Source: an uncultured Candidatus Saccharibacteria bacterium (GTDB taxonomy: Bacteria > Patescibacteriota > CAZHWT01). Taken from it: a DNA stretch of 64,000 nt. Position numbers and translations under genes: made by a program. Shown piece after piece: positions 2,858 to 52,517 of this stretch. Where the stretch lies: contig CAZQWH010000001.1 in NCBI GenBank assembly GCA_964597145.1, forward strand, positions 166,441 through 230,440, in the 5' to 3' direction. The notes beneath the pieces were generated by a model. The model was given only the letters and a program-made list of their open reading frames with translations, searched no databases and had not been told where the DNA came from. Every line of letters starts with the position of its first letter. Within the stretch, counting starts at the first letter, position 1.

Positions 2858-4204
2858 ATGACTGCTGTCCAAATTAGATGTTGGTTTCAAACTCTGGTTG
2901 CGCATCCCGCTTTTCGTGATATTAATGCGCGGTATGCGGATCTGATGCATTACCCTCATGCCGATCGCTTAGCCATCCGTGTATTGTGGCTGCACGGGAT
3001 AGCCTTGGTCGTATTAGTTATAGTTAATGCCTTTTATCAAACACCGCTTATAATTCCTTCACCCTTCGGTTGGCGGGTAATCGGCGTTGAAGCTGGGCTC
3101 ATAGCACTACTACTCGGATTGGCGGCCACAATTACTCCCATCATGTTATACCGCCGGATTGAAAACCATTTTCTATGGCGATTAGTGCTAGCTACCGCCT
3201 TACTAACCTATTCGTATTTGCTTGTTTTTATTAGCGGCGGCGCAATTGAAATGCACTTCCACTTTTTTATTATTATGGCCTTTATGTCTTTATATGCCGA
3301 TTGGCGGATTGGCTGGTACATGTTTGGCCTAATCACCGTTAACCATTTACTGTTCAATGTATTTTGGCCAGATATGTTGTATTTTTACGGCCACAACGAT
3401 TTATCACCTTTGGTGCATTTACCGTTCATGTTTATCATGACCCTCTTTACCACCATTCTATGCCGCAATTATCGGGGGTCGGTAGCAGCCTTGGTCGCCG
3501 CTAAAAACCGTAATGATGAGTTCTTGGCCATTGCCAGCCATGAGTTAAAAACTCCCCTCACCAGCATGAAAGGGTATACCGAAATGTTGCACCGCAAGTT
3601 TAAACGAGTCTCAGATACAAGCTCGTTGGCCTATATTGAGAAATTAGATGATCAACTCAATAAAATAATCGGCTTAGTCCGGGATTTATTAGATATCTCG
3701 CGTATTCAATCGGGCCAAGTCCAGATTCGGCAGGAGTTAGTCTCGGTTGAATCGCTCGTCGAGAAGGCGGTGGACGAGGTTCAGTCGCTAACGCATCAAC
3801 ATCAAATTGAAGTCGTAGGGGACAAGCGAGTCATGGTCTATGGAGATAAAGCCCGGTTATCCCAACTACTCGTTAACTTATTATCGAACGCCATTAAATA
3901 TTCTCCAGAAGCCGATCGGGTTATTGTATCCATAAAAGCTGCTCGCGACCGCGTTGTAATTGAAGTGCAAGATTTTGGGATTGGCATATCGGTTACGGAA
4001 AAAGTGAAAATTTTTGAGCCGTACTTCCGCGGCCAGGCTCAACAACGAGAAGAGGTCCCAGGCGGTTTGGGTATGGGGTTGTACATCTGCGACGAAATTG
4101 TGCGGCGGCATCAAGGACGGCTATGGGTAGAAAGTACGGTCGGGCAGGGCTCAACCTTTTCCTTTCTCCTTCCTCTACCCCCTCGGGATGGAGGTATACC
4201 GTGA
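2858..4204 (+). CDS. Sensor histidine kinase with multi-TM N-terminal sensor, HisKA and HATPase_c domains
   Basis: Five or six hydrophobic helices. H-box FLAIASHELKTPLTSMKGYTEML. ATPase N, G1 and G2 boxes (LLSNAIKYS, DFGIGI, GGLGMGLYIC). Confidence 0.85.
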   Translation: MTAVQIRCWFQTLVAHPAFRDINARYADLMHYPHADRLAIRVLWLHGIALVVLVIVNAFYQTPLIIPSPFGWRVIGVEAGLIALLLGLAATITPIMLYRRIENHFLWRLVLATALLTYSYLLVFISGGAIEMHFHFFIIMAFMSLYADWRIGWYMFGLITVNHLLFNVFWPDMLYFYGHNDLSPLVHLPFMFIMTLFTTILCRNYRGSVAALVAAKNRNDEFLAIASHELKTPLTSMKGYTEMLHRKFKRVSDTSSLAYIEKLDDQLNKIIGLVRDLLDISRIQSGQVQIRQELVSVESLVEKAVDEVQSLTHQHQIEVVGDKRVMVYGDKARLSQLLVNLLSNAIKYSPEADRVIVSIKAARDRVVIEVQDFGIGISVTEKVKIFEPYFRGQAQQREEVPGGLGMGLYICDEIVRRHQGRLWVESTVGQGSTFSFLLPLPPRDGGIP

Positions 4205-5369: not shown

Positions 5370-7112
5370 CTATTGGAGGTAGTACACATTAATCGCTCCA
5401 CCTAAGATAGCCACTGGCTGGTGGTGGTCAATTACCCAACCCCAGTCATTATTCCGCTGACAAATGTGGTTGGTGATGGTCGAGCGAGAAATGGCTAAAT
5501 AGCCGGTATAACTATGATTATCAGGATCGGCGCTGGTGTAGGGTATGTGTAGATAGTCGGCTTCGGCCCGGCTAATAAAATTATCAAAAGCAATCGAGTC
5601 AATCTGCTGCTGTGATACGTAGGCAGCCAAAACCTTGGTCCCTTGACCCCAGTCGGTGTTGGAGTCATCGGCTACAAACGGAATAGCCTGCGGTTCTTGG
5701 GCGAGTATGTTGTAGTAAGGCAGGTAATACGGCCAAGCCATAAAGCTGGAGATGGCCACACTGCCAACCAAAACAATACAAGCAGTCAGGACCAGTTTGG
5801 CTTGGCGGCGCTGGTGACCGAAACGCAATAGTCGGGACAATCCGTATCCAGCGCCTATCAGTAATAAAATGTAAATTGGAAAGATATGACGGATACCAAT
5901 GTTTATCCCGGTTAATCCAGAAATAGCCAAGTAAACGACGGTTGGGACAATAAAAAAGTAGCTGGCAAAGGTTAGCCCAGGGGTGGGGGGGCGGAAGCGC
6001 CGCAGTAGATACCACCCAACGCCAGCCATAACAAGTAGTAAGGTTGGAAGTGGTGTCTTAAACAGGCTTAGGAGTGGGAAATAGTCCCAGCGACTCCCCT
6101 CAAAGCATTGTCCCAACAGATAGCCTTGGCGGTTTGGGGCAACAATATTGGCCACACCTTTAGCGTAGGTGGGTGGCAAAATCGTCAGAATGGTGCCAGC
6201 AGGCTGGAGAATATCTGGCCGCTGGGCAGGGTTTTGATCTGGGTTAAGGAGCATCAGCGTGCCGTACCCCAACCATATCAGGGCCAAGGCAATTAATCCA
6301 ATGCTAGCCACGGAAGCTATGTATTGAATCCATACTCTTGGAGAGTGAGCATGAATGTTGGCAGTGAGGTGGCGAAACGGCAGAGGCGCAATAGCTGCTA
6401 GCTGATGACGGTGATACGTTAGCCAGATCGCAGTCAAAACAGGCAAAATAATCGCCAGCATTCCCAGCGAGAATTTAGTCAGCATACCAAGACCAAGGAC
6501 AATGCCAGTAATAACTAACCAGCGGTAATTTCGGTGTTGTAAAAAATTCCAAAAGCTCGCCAGAACACCAATAAAAAACAAACTGGCACCAATATCGGTA
6601 TTAATAAGCTTGCCATGGGCAATAATGTTGGGATCAAAACTGAATAAGGCTAGCACCAAGAGCGCTGGCGTAGTCCCAAAGAGTTGTCGAGCCCACCAGA
6701 ACAACACTAAGGCCAGGCCTAGGGTGATAAACATCATCATCACTCGAGCGGCAAATAAAACTTGGTATGGGTCATCCGAACCCTGGAATAGTAGTTCCCA
6801 GCCCCATTGGTTAGCCTGGTAATAGGTGTTGTAGTCAATGTCCGTTTGTGTTGGTTGAAGATCTAAGGCTTGGTCTGGGATGTGCGGTTGGAGCCAGAGC
6901 AACGGTATCGCGGCAATGGCTTTGACTAAAAACGGGTGTTCAGGATCGAACAGCATATGGTGCTGGGTCAAAGTAGCGTACCCCGACAGTAAATGGATCG
7001 GTTCATCTGCCGTCGCCGAGTCGGTCTTGGCACTGACCACAAGTTGCACTACCAGTATGGCCAACAGGATAATCACCATAATTGGGGTAATAAAGCGGCG
7101 TAACTTAGTCAT
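5370..7112 (-). CDS. GT-C family glycosyltransferase (PMT/ArnT-like, PMT_2) with C-terminal soluble domain
   Basis: About 11 predicted TM helices. DEPIHLLSGY motif (the DE catalytic motif of GT39/GT83) in the first extracytoplasmic loop. 580 aa. Confidence 0.6.
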   Translation of the reverse strand: MTKLRRFITPIMVIILLAILVVQLVVSAKTDSATADEPIHLLSGYATLTQHHMLFDPEHPFLVKAIAAIPLLWLQPHIPDQALDLQPTQTDIDYNTYYQANQWGWELLFQGSDDPYQVLFAARVMMMFITLGLALVLFWWARQLFGTTPALLVLALFSFDPNIIAHGKLINTDIGASLFFIGVLASFWNFLQHRNYRWLVITGIVLGLGMLTKFSLGMLAIILPVLTAIWLTYHRHQLAAIAPLPFRHLTANIHAHSPRVWIQYIASVASIGLIALALIWLGYGTLMLLNPDQNPAQRPDILQPAGTILTILPPTYAKGVANIVAPNRQGYLLGQCFEGSRWDYFPLLSLFKTPLPTLLLVMAGVGWYLLRRFRPPTPGLTFASYFFIVPTVVYLAISGLTGINIGIRHIFPIYILLLIGAGYGLSRLLRFGHQRRQAKLVLTACIVLVGSVAISSFMAWPYYLPYYNILAQEPQAIPFVADDSNTDWGQGTKVLAAYVSQQQIDSIAFDNFISRAEADYLHIPYTSADPDNHSYTGYLAISRSTITNHICQRNNDWGWVIDHHQPVAILGGAINVYYLQ

Positions 7113-7440
7113 AGGCTTCCTCTAAATCGGCTGAGTCCACGAGGTAAGTGTTAAGATCAACAAACAAATTACCATCCTTCTCTGTAATCTCAACTCCTTC
7201 TTGGCGAAGTAGATAGGCTTGGTCCTCCTTAGTCACCGCCATATTCTCAATCGAAATCATGCCTTGGCGGTTAATAACTCGTTGCCAAGGCACTGGTTGA
7301 GTAGAGTTTTTAGCCAAAGCAACACCAACCATTCGGGCGGCTCGGGGTTGTCCTAAGACAGCCGCGATTTGCCCATAGGTAGCCACTTTACCATATGGTA
7401 TGCGTTGCACTACTTTATAAACGCTTAGGTGGAAGTTCAC
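7105..7440 (-). CDS. atl: Alkyltransferase-like protein (ATL; MGMT DNA-binding domain with Trp replacing the active-site Cys)
   Basis: RIPYGKVATYGQIAAVLGQPRAARMVGVALAKN...PWQRVIN: the PCHRV active site appears as PWQRV, the hallmark of ATL proteins. 8 bp overlap with the upstream gene. Confidence 0.7.
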   Translation of the reverse strand: MNFHLSVYKVVQRIPYGKVATYGQIAAVLGQPRAARMVGVALAKNSTQPVPWQRVINRQGMISIENMAVTKEDQAYLLRQEGVEITEKDGNLFVDLNTYLVDSADLEEAYD

Positions 7441-12136: not shown

Positions 12137-12859
12137 TCATGCCTCAGAGGATGATTGGTAAAGTTCGGCCCGTTTACCTCGAGATTTATTGAATAACTCG
12201 ATCCAGCGCTGCGGTGACCATCCTTTGGGTATCCAATGCACCCACAAGCCACCACAAATTTGTTGTCCTCGACCGTATGGCCACTTTGATTGATATGGTG
12301 CCCATCCACTAACGTGATCCTCGACGAAGATTTCATCAAACATGATCGATCCATCTGCCTCATAAATGACCAGGCGATCACCACCATGAATGATGCGGAG
12401 CGAGTCATACCCGTCCAAACCATCAACTTCGATAGACCAATAGGCCCCCTCAGTGCCCGTTTCGAAAAAAGCTTCGAGTTTGCCGACTGCGGCGGTGGTG
12501 TTGGCTAGCCGTTCTCTTCGTTGAGCAATAAATCCCCGATCCTCATCGGTTAGTGATTGCTGTTGAAGATAGTTAGGAGTGATGGGGGTTTTCTGGCGCT
12601 CTACATCCCATCGCTCCGCCGCTTCCTGACATATGACTGCAAATTGGACAACAGCTTGAATTGCTGTGTCAATTTTGTCTTGATCAGAAGTAAAAGCGAT
12701 ACTTTTGTCGATTTGCTCGTAGCAGTCAGAGAGTTTCTGGTACGTCTTTTTATAAAGGTCGTACAGTTCTTGCTGGACAATCAGATCATAGCGAAACAAC
12801 AAGGTGTTGAGGTTATCCCAGGCAACATCGAATTCTCGACTCTTGGTTTGGTCGCTCAT
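12137..12859 (-). CDS. Hypothetical protein (coiled-coil N-half, Trp/Gly-rich C-half)
   Basis: 240-codon ORF with good coding appearance. No recognised family. Confidence 0.45.
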   Translation of the reverse strand: MSDQTKSREFDVAWDNLNTLLFRYDLIVQQELYDLYKKTYQKLSDCYEQIDKSIAFTSDQDKIDTAIQAVVQFAVICQEAAERWDVERQKTPITPNYLQQQSLTDEDRGFIAQRRERLANTTAAVGKLEAFFETGTEGAYWSIEVDGLDGYDSLRIIHGGDRLVIYEADGSIMFDEIFVEDHVSGWAPYQSKWPYGRGQQICGGLWVHWIPKGWSPQRWIELFNKSRGKRAELYQSSSEA

Positions 12860-12978
12860 GGTCTTCTCCTCTGTGAATTGAGCAACGCTATAGAACAGCA
12901 GGATTGTAGCACAAACTCCAGTTAATGTGTAGCTATAGGCTTATGTCTTAATTGTTTGTATTATGGATCAAATAGAAG

Positions 12979-13130
12979 CTGGTCGGGGTGAGAGTAACGT
13001 TCGCCCTGCTCTCGGCTCATAGCCTTCCACTATCAAATTCGTCGGTTCCATAGTTTCAGGCTATTAAATAAACCTCCGACCGACCAATGGAAGTAATTTC
13101 CCATACTGGCGCCCCGCGCCACCTAGGTTT
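12979..13130 (-). other. Degenerate tRNA-Pro-like partial copy (D-arm/anticodon-arm-like segment, T-stem start and exact 3'-end repeat CTCTCACCCCGACCAG)
   Basis: Minus-strand reading gives GGCGC-GGG-GCGCC-AGTATGGG...GGAGGTT...CTCTCACCCCGACCAG. It lacks a 5' acceptor strand. The 16 nt 3' end is identical to that of the adjacent intact tRNA-Pro. Confidence 0.4.
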
Positions 13131-13142
13131 AGTGTAATTTAC

Positions 13143-13219
13143 TGGTCGGGGTGAGAGGACTTGAACCTCCGACCTCCAGTACCCCATACTGGCGCGCTAG
13201 CCAACTGCGCCACACCCCG
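13143..13219 (-). tRNA. tRNA-Pro (anticodon GGG)
   Basis: Reverse complement CGGGGTG-TG-GCGC-AGTTGGCTA-GCGC-G-CCAGT-ATGGGGT-ACTGG-AGGTC-GGAGG-TTCAAGT-CCTCT-CACCCCG-A-CCA folds as a cloverleaf with a 7 bp acceptor stem, GGTTCAAGTCC T-arm and encoded CCA. Confidence 0.85.
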
Positions 13220-13468
13220 AAAACAAAGTTAAAAGTTAAAAGGCAAAAGGCAAAAGTGATTGACATGTAACATTTTAACTCTGGGATTATATCAGGTATA
13301 AAGCTAAAATTCTAACTCCGAACTCCTATCTCCGTACTTCCGGAACTGCTTGGCCGTTGACGTTTCGGGTTATGTTGGGGTATAGTTCTTATACTCCTTG
13401 CTACACTGTTGGCATGAGGTGTTTTATACTAGTATGGTTAGGTTTGAATAGTACGAAAGGATAATGTT

Positions 13469-14530
13469 ATGGCAACAGCCGCAGATCAAAATAAATCTCA
13501 AGCCATCAAATTGGCTATGGAGCAAATCGAAAAGCAATTTGGCAAGGGCTCTATCATGAAGCTCGGCGATAAGCAGGGCAGCATGAATGTGGAATGTACC
13601 GCGTCTGGGTCTATTGCTCTCGATATGGCGCTCGGTGGTGGTTATCCAAAAGGCCGTATTATTGAAATATACGGACCGGAGTCGTCCGGCAAAACTACGC
13701 TAACCTTGCATGCGGTAGCCGAAGTCCAAAAAGCAGGTGGCACAGCCGCGTTCGTCGACGCCGAACATGCTTTAGATCCGGTCTATGCCAAGCGTATCGG
13801 TGTTGATGTTGAAGCATTACTCGTCTCGCAGCCAGATAATGGTGAACAGGCACTAGAGATTACCGAAACTCTAATTCGATCCGGAGCAGTCGATATGATC
13901 GTGGTTGACTCCGTGGCCGCCCTAACTCCTCGTGCCGAGATTGAAGGAGATATGGGTGATGCCCAAATGGGCTTGCAGGCTCGATTAATGAGTCAAGCTT
14001 TACGTAAATTGACTGGTGCTATTTCTCGATCTAATTCCACCGTTATTTTCACTAATCAGCTTCGAGAAAAGATTGGCGTAATGTTTGGCAACCCCGAAAC
14101 CACGACCGGTGGTAAAGCCTTAAAGTTCTATGCTTCAATTCGGCTAGAAGTTCGCCGAACCGGTCAAATTAAAGATGCCGATAACGTCACTGGTAGCCAG
14201 ACCAAGGTTAAAGTAGTCAAGAATAAGATTGCTCCACCATTCCGTACCGCCGAGTTCGATATTATGTATAACGAAGGCATCTCTAAATCAGGCAGCACCT
14301 TAGATGTAGCTGTAGAAATGGGAATAATCCAGAAAGCTGGAGCTTGGTTTAGCTATAACGATGAAAAAATTTCTCAGGGACGTGAAGCCGCTAAGAAATA
14401 TCTCCAAGAAAATCCAAAAGTAATGGAAGAGGTTAACAAGAAAATTAGAGCCTCAAAAGTCGAAATCCCATTCGAAATTGGCCGTGACTCCGAAGCTGAG
14501 GATGACGCAATAGATGGCGCCAGCCAGTAA
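13469..14530 (+). CDS. recA: Recombinase RecA
   Basis: [20 protein letters not shown] Walker A and a full RecA core. RBS AAAGGA. Confidence 0.97.
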
Positions 14531-48517: not shown

Positions 48518-48997
48518 GTAGTTGGCAGGGCGCATGGAGTGTGCAAGATTAGTTACTGCTAATTAGCCAGCACTTGTTGCTCTGAGTTGGTGATTTTGGT
48601 ACAATCCGAAGCGCTGTCATAGACAGCACAGTAGCTGGTATTTGGTATCTTGTATGGGTTATATAGGCGTAGTCATTCTGGACTGAAGCCAAGCGTAAGG
48701 ATAGAATCTCTATCTACTAACTACAGTCTACGAACTACTGCAAGCAAAGCTTGCTGCGGCATCACCTCAACCGTCAGGTTGAGTAACCAGCTATAATGAA
48801 GGAAGCTTAACGGATAAGAACTAAATAATTGCTGCGAGATGGTGCTACGTAGTGGTTTTCTCTATGCCAACGAGCAATAGAATAGGCAAATTATGGATGA
48901 CGAAATATAATTGAGTCCAATTGCATCACATTCCGATGGAACATCGGAAAAGGCTTTGAAAGTTGGAAGAGATAATTTAATATAGTCAGACTAATAT

Positions 48998-49071
48998 TGG
49001 CGGATGGTGAAATGGCATCACACCACTCTCTGGAAGTGGCATTCTTGGTTCGAGTCCAGGTCCGCCAGCCA
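48998..49071 (+). tRNA. tRNA-Gln (anticodon CUG)
   Basis: TGGCGGA-TG-GTGA-AATGGCA-TCAC-A-CCACT-CTCTGGA-AGTGG-CATT-CTTGG-TTCGAGT-CCAGG-TCCGCCA-G-CCA. U1-A72 and G73 are typical for bacterial tRNA-Gln. CCA is encoded. Confidence 0.85.
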
Positions 49072-49079
49072 AGCAAAGT

Positions 49080-49104
49080 GCCCAACGATTGAGTTGGGCT
49101 TTTT
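49080..49104 (+). terminator. Rho-independent terminator after tRNA-Gln (GCCCAAC-gattga-GTTGGGC-TTTTT)
   Basis: 7 bp GC-rich stem plus T5, 9 nt after the tRNA 3' end. Confidence 0.6.
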
Positions 49105-49217
49105 GCTTGCTTGTGGGCTACAGAATCGGATCAACTAGGTTCGAAGATAGGAGAATAACTATAGCTGACTGGTTCATGCTATAGTTGTGAACTACTCTCG
49201 CGGGAATTGTGGGACAA

Positions 49218-49234
49218 TTCCGCGGCGACCAGGT
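49218..49234 (+). other. Direct repeat of the tRNA-Gln 3' end (CCAGGTCCGCCAGCCA), 147 nt downstream of the tRNA
   Basis: 16 of 16 identity to tRNA-Gln positions 61-76. Preceded by a bulged hairpin CGCGGGAATTG...CAATTCCGCGG. No matching 5' half found. Confidence 0.5.
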
Positions 49235-49279
49235 CCGCCAGCCATGGTTGGTTGATTATTCTTCTGATATACTCTAAGG

Positions 49280-50523: not shown

Positions 50524-51210
50524 ATGTATATTCCTCAACCTAACTTTGCAAATGGTGAAATTTATCACATTTATAACCGCGGTATTGACCGCCGGCCGAT
50601 TTTTACCAACAAGCAGGAATATCGTCGGCTAATCCAATCCTTAGCCTTTTATATCCCCACCGACACCTCCATTCGGCTCTCTCATTACTTGGTGATGAGC
50701 CAGGGCGATCAACAGAAAGTCGACCTTCGCCGCCAAATGGCTTCTCGACGCGTCTCCACGCTCTCATACTGCCTGATGCCTAATCATTTTCATCTATTAC
50801 TTCGTCAGGAGAGCGAAGGTGGTATTTCTGAGTACTTAAGACTGTTGCAAAACAGCTACGCCCGCTATTTTAATATCAAACACTCTCGGTCCGGAGCTTT
50901 GTTTGAAGGTATATTCAAAGCAGTCTATATCGAATCACAACAACAATTAGTCCATGTTTCCCGCTATATTCACCTCAATCCCTACACGGCCTACCTTGTG
51001 AAAGATCCCAGCAACCTTGCTAACTATGCCTGGTCATCATTGCGTGACTATGTCGCGCCATCGCCGACTAGTTTTATTGACACCCAGACAATTCTTAGTG
51101 ATTTTTCCAGTACCTCAGCTTACTATGACTTTGTACTTGATCAGGCCGACTACCAACGCAGTCTGGTAAAATATGGACATCTAATCCTTGAGGATGAAGT
51201 AAAAAGCTAA
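50524..51210 (+). CDS. rayT: RayT/IS200-like HUH (Y1) transposase
   Basis: YHIYNRGIDRRPIF...YCLMPNHFHLLL (HuH motif) ...NSYARYFN...HVSRYIHLNPY (Tyr-containing helix). 228 aa. Imperfect hairpins at about 50405-50433 and 50495-50518. Confidence 0.7.
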   Translation: MYIPQPNFANGEIYHIYNRGIDRRPIFTNKQEYRRLIQSLAFYIPTDTSIRLSHYLVMSQGDQQKVDLRRQMASRRVSTLSYCLMPNHFHLLLRQESEGGISEYLRLLQNSYARYFNIKHSRSGALFEGIFKAVYIESQQQLVHVSRYIHLNPYTAYLVKDPSNLANYAWSSLRDYVAPSPTSFIDTQTILSDFSSTSAYYDFVLDQADYQRSLVKYGHLILEDEVKS

Positions 51211-51278: not shown

Positions 51279-51794
51279 ATGATCCTCACGTATCCCCGAG
51301 ATCCCAGGCTTATTACAGTTCGACGAGGCGGTACGCTCACCCAGACAAACCATCACTGGTTGGCGTTATGGGCTTCAGCTTGTGCTGAGCATGTCCTACA
51401 CTTATTTGAACAGGTACAACCTGACGATAGCCGACCTCACCAGGCAATCGAATTAGCTCAGATGTGGGCCCGAGGCGAGGCAACTATGTCTCAGGCTCGT
51501 ACGGCTGGTGGTCATGCCAATGCTGCGGCTAGGGATCAGACAGGAGCGGCTCGTTATGCTGCATATGCTGCTGCTCAGGCAGCACTGGTTGCACATGTTG
51601 CTGCCCACGATCTAGGAGCAGCGGCTTATGCTATCAAGGCGGTACAGGCGGCAGTTCAGAAAGTGCAGCAAGAACAAGCTGGTCGCCAAGAATGCCAATG
51701 GCAGCGCACCCAACTACCAGCCAACATACAAAATCTAGTCCTAGATGACCAGCGGTTGCGTAACCACGTATGTTGGCATGTTTTTGAATGTTAA
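51279..51794 (+). CDS. Ala-rich all-alpha protein resembling polymorphic-toxin immunity-like proteins (family uncertain)
   Basis: ...HHWLALWASACAEHVLHLFEQ...RPHQAIELAQMWARGE... followed by Ala/His-rich helices. I recall this pattern from proteins annotated as putative immunity proteins, but cannot verify it. Confidence 0.3.
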   Translation: MILTYPRDPRLITVRRGGTLTQTNHHWLALWASACAEHVLHLFEQVQPDDSRPHQAIELAQMWARGEATMSQARTAGGHANAAARDQTGAARYAAYAAAQAALVAHVAAHDLGAAAYAIKAVQAAVQKVQQEQAGRQECQWQRTQLPANIQNLVLDDQRLRNHVCWHVFEC

Positions 51795-52010: not shown

Positions 52011-52517
52011 ATGACTAATCTAAAAGTGATCAGCACACGCACACCAGATGGCCCGTTTTCTATGGTGGTAGACCAGGCTGATATTGTCCGACTATCGGGG
52101 TTTAGTGATGTAGAACAACTAGCTAAACGTCTGCCTCGGAAACTACAAGGGTTGCCAATAAGCCCAGTTACGAATCATCCTTATATACAAGCGATAAAAG
52201 CTTATTATGACGGAGATACCGCCGCGTTGGTGAACATTCCCCGTAGCCAGAATGGCAGTCACTTTCAAGAACAAGTCTGGCGAGCAATTGACCGTATTCC
52301 TCTTGGCCATACCCTAACCTACAAACAGTTGGCCACGGCCTCCGGCTACCCTACCGCTGTACGAGCTACAGGAACAGCCTGCGGCGCAAATAAATTGATC
52401 CTGCTTGTACCTTGTCACCGAGTACTCAAAAGCGATGGAGGTATTGGCAGCTATCTTTACGGTTCAGCTATTAAAACATCGCTACTTAGGCACGAAAAGG
52501 TGCTACGTGGCTCTTAA
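52011..52517 (+). CDS. ogt: Methylated-DNA--protein-cysteine methyltransferase (Ogt/MGMT)
   Basis: ...TYKQLATASGYPTAVRATGTACGANKLILLVPCHRV... with the intact PCHRV active site. Confidence 0.85.
   Translation: MTNLKVISTRTPDGPFSMVVDQADIVRLSGFSDVEQLAKRLPRKLQGLPISPVTNHPYIQAIKAYYDGDTAALVNIPRSQNGSHFQEQVWRAIDRIPLGHTLTYKQLATASGYPTAVRATGTACGANKLILLVPCHRVLKSDGGIGSYLYGSAIKTSLLRHEKVLRGS

Follow-up and report, generated by a model that had tools for sequence, protein, structure and literature searches.

A 64,000-nucleotide (nt) stretch of DNA from an uncultured Candidatus Saccharibacteria bacterium (contig CAZQWH010000001.1, positions 166,441 to 230,440; here called the window) contains a functional tRNA-Pro(GGG) gene whose 3' end recurs exactly a short distance downstream, and similar fragments of tRNA ends were found beside other tRNA genes of the same lineage. 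We tentatively regard this Pro site as one case of recurring small insertions anchored at tRNA ends in this lineage, and not as the scar of a large island. According to the explanation that we favor, with a probability of about 0.42, small modules devoid of enzymes insert by recombination inside a tRNA end, which they restore, thereby producing the geometry of an attachment (att) site in miniature.

ARAGORN and Rfam agreed that the window holds two tRNA genes, tRNA-Pro(GGG) at 13143-13219 on the minus strand and tRNA-Gln(CTG) at 48998-49071 on the plus strand, and neither program called a further tRNA or pseudo-tRNA in the 64 kb. The tRNA-Pro gene encodes its CCA and matched the Rfam tRNA model with 61.1 bits. 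An exact pattern search located the 16-mer CTCTCACCCCGACCAG at exactly two positions in the window: an inner copy at 13142-13157(-) and an outer copy at 12979-12994(-), where it forms the 3' end of a degenerate tRNA copy. By chance 0.01 matches were expected, and two matches occurred in 0 of 100 shuffles. The intact gene and the exact recurrence of its 3' end, both reported in a preliminary description of this DNA, were thereby confirmed. CTCTCACCCCGACCAG includes all of the T-stem 3' strand except the first C, along with the acceptor 3' strand, discriminator A, CCA, and one extra G. The two copies are separated by 147 nt (12995-13141), and no near copies with up to 2 mismatches were present in the window. 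The sequences following the two copies differ from each other—i.e., the flank was not duplicated past the second copy. Since just two copies exist in 64 kb, a larger island bounded by CTCTCACCCCGACCAG, as considered in the preliminary description, was ruled out within the window.

In its anatomy, the Pro module corresponds to a dead tRNA paralogue and cannot give rise to a tRNA. Beyond a short A+T-rich spacer of 15 nt (13127-13141, minus strand), a degenerate, near-full-length copy of tRNA-Pro(GGG), i.e., a pseudo-tRNA, extends over 12979-13126(-), as judged from the alignment and exact blocks. It starts 16 nt past the live gene and is collinear with it apart from indels in the loops. The collinear similarity of the Pro spacer to tRNA nt 7-56 reached a z score of 6.7, which was attained by 0 of 1,000 shuffles, and both BLAST and alignment identified two exact collinear blocks. 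The first, GCGCCAGTATGGG (13 nt), lies at 13100-13112 and corresponds to 13183-13195 of the tRNA, while the second, GGTCGGAGGTT (11 nt), lies at 13071-13081, corresponds to 13164-13174, and spans the variable region and the T-stem 5' strand plus the two initial bases of the T-loop. These blocks substantiated the segment resembling a D-arm and an anticodon arm, and the start of a T-stem, that had been described in the spacer. The D-arm reads GCGC-GGG-GCGC, with the loop shortened from 9 to 3 nt. The anticodon arm (CCAGT..ATTGG) consists of CCAGTATGGG, with ~11 added nt after ATGGG, followed by ATTGG, and the GGG anticodon was kept. The 5' acceptor strand, which had been claimed to be missing, turned out to be present in degenerate form as CTAGGTG at 13120-13126, matching the tRNA at 5 of 7 positions (2 mismatches). 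This acceptor-like sequence and the collinear similarity therefore indicate that 12979-13126 is nearly full-length and not 5'-truncated. Overall, the copy differs from the tRNA by ~5 substitutions in ~62 aligned positions (∼8%) and by three loop indels, two of which are palindromic.

In place of the T-loop sequence CAAGTC, the degenerate copy contains a hairpin-forming insert of 76 nt (12995-13070, minus strand), for which a nested hairpin, ATAGCCT..AGGCTAT, was predicted. This hairpin and a further addition, ATGGGAA..TTCCAT, are self-complementary. The whole 164-nt module folded only slightly better than its shuffles (z = -2.45). No second copy of the 76-nt insert was found in the window or in any fetched locus, and phage, plasmid, and viral-contig searches gave no match. 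With the 76 nt taken out, the T-loop would measure 2 nt and the T-stem strand 4 nt, and the copy can therefore not be turned back into a tRNA. The second, intron-containing or pseudo-tRNA gene for which the preliminary description had suggested looking was not called by ARAGORN, nor did the copy match the Rfam tRNA model even at E <= 10. A terminator scan of 12800-13480 detected no terminator, and hence none in the 15-nt spacer (13127-13141). Because nothing of this kind separates the two, tRNA-Pro and the module are likely cotranscribed. The inserted tRNA-like part is most likely merely carried in the 3' trailer of tRNA-Pro.

The tRNA-Gln gene, which likewise encodes its CCA, was said to show the same pattern as tRNA-Pro. 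This was correct with respect to the exact 16-nt repeat and its distance, but not with respect to a degenerate copy, as the similarity of the Gln spacer to tRNA-Gln was not significant (z = 0.4 to 0.6). The last 16 nt of the tRNA, CCAGGTCCGCCAGCCA (49056-49071), recur exactly at 49229-49244(+), 157 nt apart (0.01 expected by chance), and the outer copy is followed by a near loop-less palindrome, TGGTTGGT. An intrinsic terminator with a 7-bp G+C-rich stem and a T run lies directly after the gene (49080-49107, plus strand) and appeared as a strong hairpin in the fold. The remaining spacer (49108-49228, plus strand), as characterized by its fold, inverted repeats, and similarity tests, is rich in hairpins (AACTATAGC..GCTATAGTT and CGCGGGAATTG-TGG-GACAATTCCGCG). 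The fold of 49072-49245 gave a z score of -6.25, which includes the terminator and is partly due to its hairpin. The 38 nt just before the outer repeat exhibited marginal tRNA similarity (p ∼0.02 to 0.04, uncorrected).

Three further details were seen at this locus. At 49237-49252, the end of the outer Gln repeat, GCCAGCCA, abuts TGGTTGGT, and the two make up a palindrome that has no loop and, counting G-T pairs, is almost perfect; a comparable sense-to-antisense junction, AAGTCCT joined to AAGATTTG, occurs after the upstream element of locus L191. Upstream of the gene, at ~48893-48908, TTATGGATGACGAAAT resembles tRNA-Gln nt 1-16 with 11 of 16 matches and may be a decayed upstream fragment, because it is positioned where a relative (L260) has an exact 5' fragment. 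For the orphan gene after the Gln module, no homologues were found.

Comparison with relatives revealed sites at which the modules are absent. In locus L253, the gene order is the same as in the window (recA, tRNA-Pro(GGG), a 253-amino-acid [aa] homologue, and a methyltransferase) and the tRNA is 100% identical, whereas the distance from tRNA to gene is 146 nt versus 283 nt in the window and no second 16-mer is present. The segment thus differs among relatives, in support of the att interpretation in the preliminary description. The promoter-like site of the downstream 240-aa gene (12903-12931, minus strand), found by promoter scan and containing a TG-extended -10 box, TACAAT, marks the distal bound of the Pro module; the motif around this -10 box, TGCTA(C/T)AAT(C/T)CTGC(T/G)GT, was present in both the window and L253. 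In L253, tRNA-Pro nt 1-20 are instead present as an exact copy at 281-300, located 101 nt upstream from the actual gene, and the remainder after them is decayed. The Gln module was absent downstream of the gene in both L260 (GltX 81% identical) and L262 (70%). L260 possesses an exact copy of tRNA-Gln nt 1-12 at 5901-5912, 142 nt upstream, and this fragment shares the lineage-specific C3 variant of L260 itself. All of these relatives with empty sites, i.e., L253 for Pro (downstream protein 59% identical) and L260 and L262 for Gln, are distant, with 59 to 81% protein identity. At the recA loci of 13 Saccharibacteria species-representative genomes scanned, no tRNA was found.

Logan contigs from many samples of one study all started or ended on a 30-mer at 13173-13202, inside tRNA-Pro. 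This 30-mer equals the k-1 overlap and thus marks a branch of the assembly graph. Population polymorphism as the cause of these breaks was rejected; they are better explained by a k-mer common to co-occurring relatives.

To place the two loci in a wider context, a metagenome scan with the tRNA-Pro 3' end retrieved 120 loci from many organisms, and in an unbiased search, exact same-strand matches of at least 11 nt were sought within 400 nt on either side of 263 tRNAs. End-anchored fragments were confined to the window and loci L253, L260/L261, L139, L191, L133, and L190. Seven upstream fragments begin at tRNA nt 1 (nt 1-20 in L253, 1-19 in L133, 1-22 and 1-16 in L139, 1-12 in L260/L261, and 1-55 in L191). 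Seven downstream fragments lie at or near CCA (Pro and Gln in the window; His, Pro, and Arg in L139; L191; and L190); six of them reach CCA, whereas the L190 fragment (nt 57-72) ends 5 nt short. The 14 fragments, which belong to about a dozen independent tRNA loci, are all spaced at 100 to 190 nt, and their inner breaks fall in the D-, anticodon-, or T-loop. The few other matches (11 to 14 nt) were interior pieces from the same loci and a few others.

Across the 14 end fragments, the outermost end was exact, the inner DNA was unrelated or highly diverged, and the flanks were never duplicated. In L191, the outer pieces, nt 1-55 and 57-77, sum up to one tRNA-Pro, split in the T-loop, around an intact copy; the two inserts are ~55 to 60% identical (by eye) versus exact matches of 55/55 and 21/21 in the flanking tRNA pieces. 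At the Gln module of the window, the 16-mer was exact even though the spacer had a z score of 0.6. Both in L139 and in L191, the units are lined up as a short array, in which the terminator is orthologous and the outermost repeat is truncated. Proteins of L139 were named Candidatus Saccharibacteria by NCBI, and L139, L191, and L133 are mutually related; among the collected loci, such fragments occurred almost only in Saccharibacteria contigs. The preliminary description had left a choice between recurrent mobile-element traffic and a lineage-specific feature of tRNA loci. The latter holds, because the pattern recurs at other tRNA genes.

In L139 and L191, partial tRNA copies were found to contain a conserved element of ~90 nt, made up of three hairpins closed by the T-stem and nested in the T-loop. 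Its host sites lie beside intact tRNA-Arg, -His, and -Pro genes of a second Saccharibacteria clade. Copies are located at 2343-2450, 2854-2957, and 7189-7297 in L139 and at 3166-3273(-) and 3467-3572(-) in L191, and weak further copies at 7001-7101 and 9747-9866 in L139. Among the five copies, 93% of cells were paired and 18 of 37 pairs were compensatory, which was matched by 0 of 500 shuffles and compared with at most 4 pairs in slid controls. A count of 13 G-U versus 0 A-C cells placed the structure on the tRNA-sense strand. The element had no match in Rfam. A covariance model built for it (R1) matched only the L139 and L191 copies, with 85 to 107 bits, plus the two weak ones; run with filters off against the window modules it gave no match, the best window scores (9 bits, E ∼4 to 5) lying elsewhere or on the T-arm itself. 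The ~90-nt element belongs to one architectural family with the window modules but showed no detectable relationship to their inserts. A pattern scan of viral contigs for the element returned chance matches only. Several second-clade modules open with the tRNA's 3' portion in inverted form, a signal that was significant in L191, L190, and L139. An antisense (inverted) tRNA arm in the window modules was considered as well and discarded as not significant.

Genes that could mobilize such DNA were not found next to the modules. Both loci lie among common housekeeping genes of the chromosome (recA, methyltransferase, NTP transferase, and GltX, as assigned by Pfam), and no integrase, reverse transcriptase, transposase, cas12k, tnsB/C, tniQ, or tnpB-like gene was present near either of them. 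A tblastn search with a Saccharibacteria XerD-like recombinase against the 64 kb gave no match. Rfam, at both gathering score and E <= 10, returned tRNAs only and no group I intron or other family. The sole mobile-element-like gene of the window encodes a RAYT/IS200-like Y1 (HUH) protein of 228 aa at 50524-51210(+), 1.3 kb past the Gln module. It scored 32.8 bits against Pfam Y1_Tnp, above threshold, and 53.5 bits against the NCBIfam RAYT model, below the cutoff of 80. No hairpins resembling repetitive extragenic palindromes (REPs) were seen flanking this gene, and the hairpins of the window modules are single-copy in 64 kb.

According to the reading that we favor, ~100 to 190 nt of DNA bearing its own copy of a tRNA end would undergo recombination with the resident gene within this end. 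For tRNA-Pro, the common end would comprise the final 16 nt (T-stem 3' strand to CCA), and here the module consists of a dead copy of the same tRNA. The working tRNA would be rebuilt on one side, and the exact end fragment would be left beyond the inserted DNA, resulting in the order of intact tRNA, spacer, and repeat. Recombination might be performed by a trans-acting recombinase or by host homologous recombination. Later, the direct repeats would permit loss via recombination or replication slippage, and only products keeping one intact tRNA would survive. We infer the recombination step, the enzyme behind it, and the mobility of the window's own spacers. Insertion modules were ranked first because the exact outer ends, the unduplicated flanks, and the tracking of the C3 variant in L260 would all follow from recombination within the tRNA end. 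The exact repeats ending at the mature tRNA end at two tRNA genes of the window, 147 and 157 nt apart, argue in the same direction, as do the empty sites in L253, L260, and L262, the confinement of such loci to Saccharibacteria, and the arrays of L139 and L191. In addition, the T-loop-to-3'-end region of tRNA-Pro is a genuine recombination target elsewhere: the integrase genes for which the preliminary description had suggested looking next to the 16-mer were absent from the window, but do adjoin it in viral contigs L233 and L221 of other bacteria, in true att contexts.

Several observations weigh against this reading. Every retrieved contig of the population (contigs with identical proteins, all from one sample series) carried the Pro module unchanged, and no allele with an empty site turned up among them. 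No recombinase, reverse transcriptase, or transposase lies beside either module, the only candidate being the sub-cutoff Y1 protein. Neither spacer recurred in the window, in ~1.8 Mb of fetched loci, or in phage, plasmid, and viral collections, and these particular spacers are therefore only putatively mobile. Over tRNA nt 1-56, the Pro spacer matches the gene collinearly with ~8% substitutions, which tandem duplication explains equally well, and the exactness of the last 27 aligned nt of this copy was not statistically distinct from the rest. Finally, no relationship could be detected between the window inserts and the covarying element of the second clade.

The main rival, ranked second and considered less likely, is that the tRNA gene was simply duplicated in tandem and one copy then decayed neutrally. 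The 16-mer would then be the best-preserved piece of a young pseudogene, and the additions in the anticodon- and T-loops would be palindromic (template-switch) expansions tolerated in a dead gene. The Pro module fits this description well: it follows the tRNA collinearly over almost the entire length, anticodon included, has lost its calls as a tRNA gene, differs by only the few substitutions given above, and has self-complementary additions. Like tRNA pseudogenes known from tandem duplication, it is a noncallable copy 16 nt past a live gene with indels in the loops. Moreover, the arrangement in L253 is the mirror image, the pseudo-copy lying upstream of the intact gene, and an ancestral pair that underwent reciprocal loss would agree with the distances to the conserved flanking promoters. 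Tandem tRNA-Pro arrays are known in other contigs (L111). Unlike in such pseudogenes, however, the flank is not duplicated after the second copy, and the outermost end is exact across loci, which random decay does not predict for 14 end fragments. The Gln, L139, and L191 modules contain unrelated or strongly diverged inner DNA and yet have an exact end piece, and the L260 fragment tracks a lineage-specific change of its tRNA. Neutral decay of a tandem duplicate thus accounts for the Pro module alone and not for the pattern across loci. The decayed duplication or disrupted tRNA that the preliminary description had offered as an alternative accordingly describes the anatomy of the Pro module, but by itself leaves the exact outermost pieces at all such loci found here unexplained.

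A broader form of the insertion reading, which we consider rather doubtful, supposes an undescribed group of miniature structure-conserved elements in Saccharibacteria, either mobile and read as folded single strands or acting as tRNA-tagged RNAs. Such elements would insert in the D-, anticodon-, or T-loops of tRNA genes, rebuild the gene, and leave end fragments 100 to 190 nt away, and the window modules would be degenerate members. Recombination sites that act as folded single strands (integron attC sites, IS200/IS605 ends, and REP/RAYT systems) resemble the second-clade element in that its hairpins were kept by compensatory changes while the sequence diverged, in that it always has one orientation, and in its patchy presence; furthermore, the window encodes a RAYT-like Y1 protein. 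They differ in that no link between this protein and the modules was found, the protein scored below the curated RAYT cutoff, and the hairpins of the window are single-copy.

A functional structured RNA, either a tRNA-derived noncoding RNA or a cis-acting trailer element, was ranked third and is improbable. Its tRNA-like 3' end (acceptor and T-stem strand plus CCA) would recruit tRNA-processing or -binding proteins, or would compete, while the tRNA matures, with the strands of the tRNA itself. The strong covariation of the second-clade T-loop element (18 of 37 compensatory pairs, 0 of 500 shuffles), the G-U versus A-C count that puts its structure on the tRNA-sense strand, the likely cotranscription of tRNA-Pro with its module, and the folding of the Gln module far better than shuffles (z = -6.25) are consistent with such a role. 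However, the window modules are absent from the nearest relatives, have no homologues for covariation testing, and are not matched by the R1 covariance model, the Pro module folds modestly (z = -2.45), and the Gln score stems partly from the terminator hairpin. Moreover, recombination sites that are read in folded single-stranded form look the same, with a structure that is conserved, a sequence that has diverged, and a patchy occurrence.

Ranked fourth and very improbable is the view that a large island or prophage, brought in by an integrase, entered at the tRNA 3' end and later lost its interior, so that only the att arms were left as a scar. The arrangement does share with the att sites of tyrosine integrases (P4-type and related) an intact tRNA followed by DNA and an exact 3'-end repeat that stops at the tRNA end, and its presence varies among relatives, with empty sites in L253 for Pro and in L260 and L262 for Gln. 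In these respects of geometry and variability, the att interpretation in the preliminary description was apt, and a terminator directly after tRNA-Gln, the use of this tRNA-Pro end by integrases elsewhere, and an XerD-like recombinase gene adjoining the homologue of the window's downstream 240-aa gene in L258 and L259 point the same way. On the other hand, no integrase, cargo, or island was found, the bounded DNA is just 147 to 157 nt long, and the neighbors are housekeeping genes. Within an att pair, the bounded DNA is expected to lack similarity to the tRNA's 5' part, which was the case at Gln (z = 0.6) but not at Pro (z = 6.7); the Pro spacer is a collinear copy of tRNA-Pro(GGG) with its anticodon and not att arms, and a plain attR, as initially suggested, is therefore not what lies there. 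Precise excision by an integrase would, in addition, not leave a scar. Random internal deletions would not yield 14 end fragments all spaced at 100 to 190 nt. Neither a coding remnant nor similarity to phages or plasmids was detected, and in this lineage, fragments anchored at the 5' end and lying upstream of the gene are found as often as those anchored at the 3' end.

It is hardly credible that the module is a tRNA gene that is split or contains an intron, or that it encodes a guide RNA directed at the tRNA gene by its 16-nt 3' end (the homing crRNA of a CRISPR-associated transposon or a TnpB-type guide), as an intact tRNA is adjacent in every case, even though the inserts are located in tRNA loops and a structured scaffold followed by 16 to 22 nt of target-identical sequence is reminiscent of 3'-guide RNAs. 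Individual candidates of this kind were rejected on separate grounds. In the case of an intron-containing tRNA, CAAGTC is missing, the D-loop has 3 nt, the acceptor has 2 mismatches, and no Rfam intron matched at E <= 10. CRISPR-associated transposon or TnpB guide RNAs were dismissed for lack of cas12k, tnsB/C, tniQ, or tnpB-like genes among the window neighbors of either module and of a scaffold common to the Pro and Gln spacers, retrons and other reverse-transcriptase noncoding RNAs for lack of a reverse transcriptase near the modules, and a known RNA family because Rfam yielded only tRNAs.

In archaea, partial tRNA copies, including 5' fragments upstream of the intact gene, have been attributed to integration or recombination of mobile elements, and such fragments can be overlooked or wrongly called by gene finders (Sugahara et al. 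2012, PMC3293823; van der Gulik et al. 2023, PMC9897764). The archaeal disrupted tRNA genes involve kilobase elements with a recombinase (PMC3293823; PMC9897764), whereas the modules described here are bacterial, measure ~0.1 to 0.2 kb, and have no enzyme gene.

With respect to the wider genomic context, the RecA protein of the window was closest to those of Saccharibacteria metagenome-assembled genomes, with 72 to 76% identity to the best matches. The gene downstream of tRNA-Pro belongs to an orphan family of 235 to 253 aa without a Pfam or NCBIfam match, whose members lie at 12137-12859(-) in the window, 605-1366 in L253, 4001-4708 in L257, and 1434-2147 in L258. In three lineages, the gene is located directly after tRNA-Pro (GGG or TGG), and in a fourth lineage, directly after a gene for an XerD-like tyrosine recombinase. 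The Y1 gene is followed by genes for an Imm5-like immunity protein (51279-51794) and an O6-methylguanine-DNA methyltransferase (MGMT)-type DNA-binding protein (52011-52517). The MGMT DNA-binding domain is found in two separate genes of the window, 7105-7440(-) and 52011-52517(+). In L139, 701-784(-) matched the c-di-GMP-II riboswitch with 42.8 bits (E = 1.7e-6), below the gathering score of 53.5.

If the pattern merely reflects duplication and decay, the finding is an ordinary one. If the favored reading is true, essential single-copy tRNA genes in the very small genomes of these episymbionts would be repeatedly invaded and rebuilt by enzyme-less units of 0.1 to 0.2 kb, a miniature form of tRNA-targeted integration. 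Both tRNA annotation and assembly would be affected, since fragments and pseudo-copies would lie beside live genes and contigs would break at such loci. It would also bear on the search for the trans-acting recombinase, or the RNA function, behind the covarying non-Rfam element.

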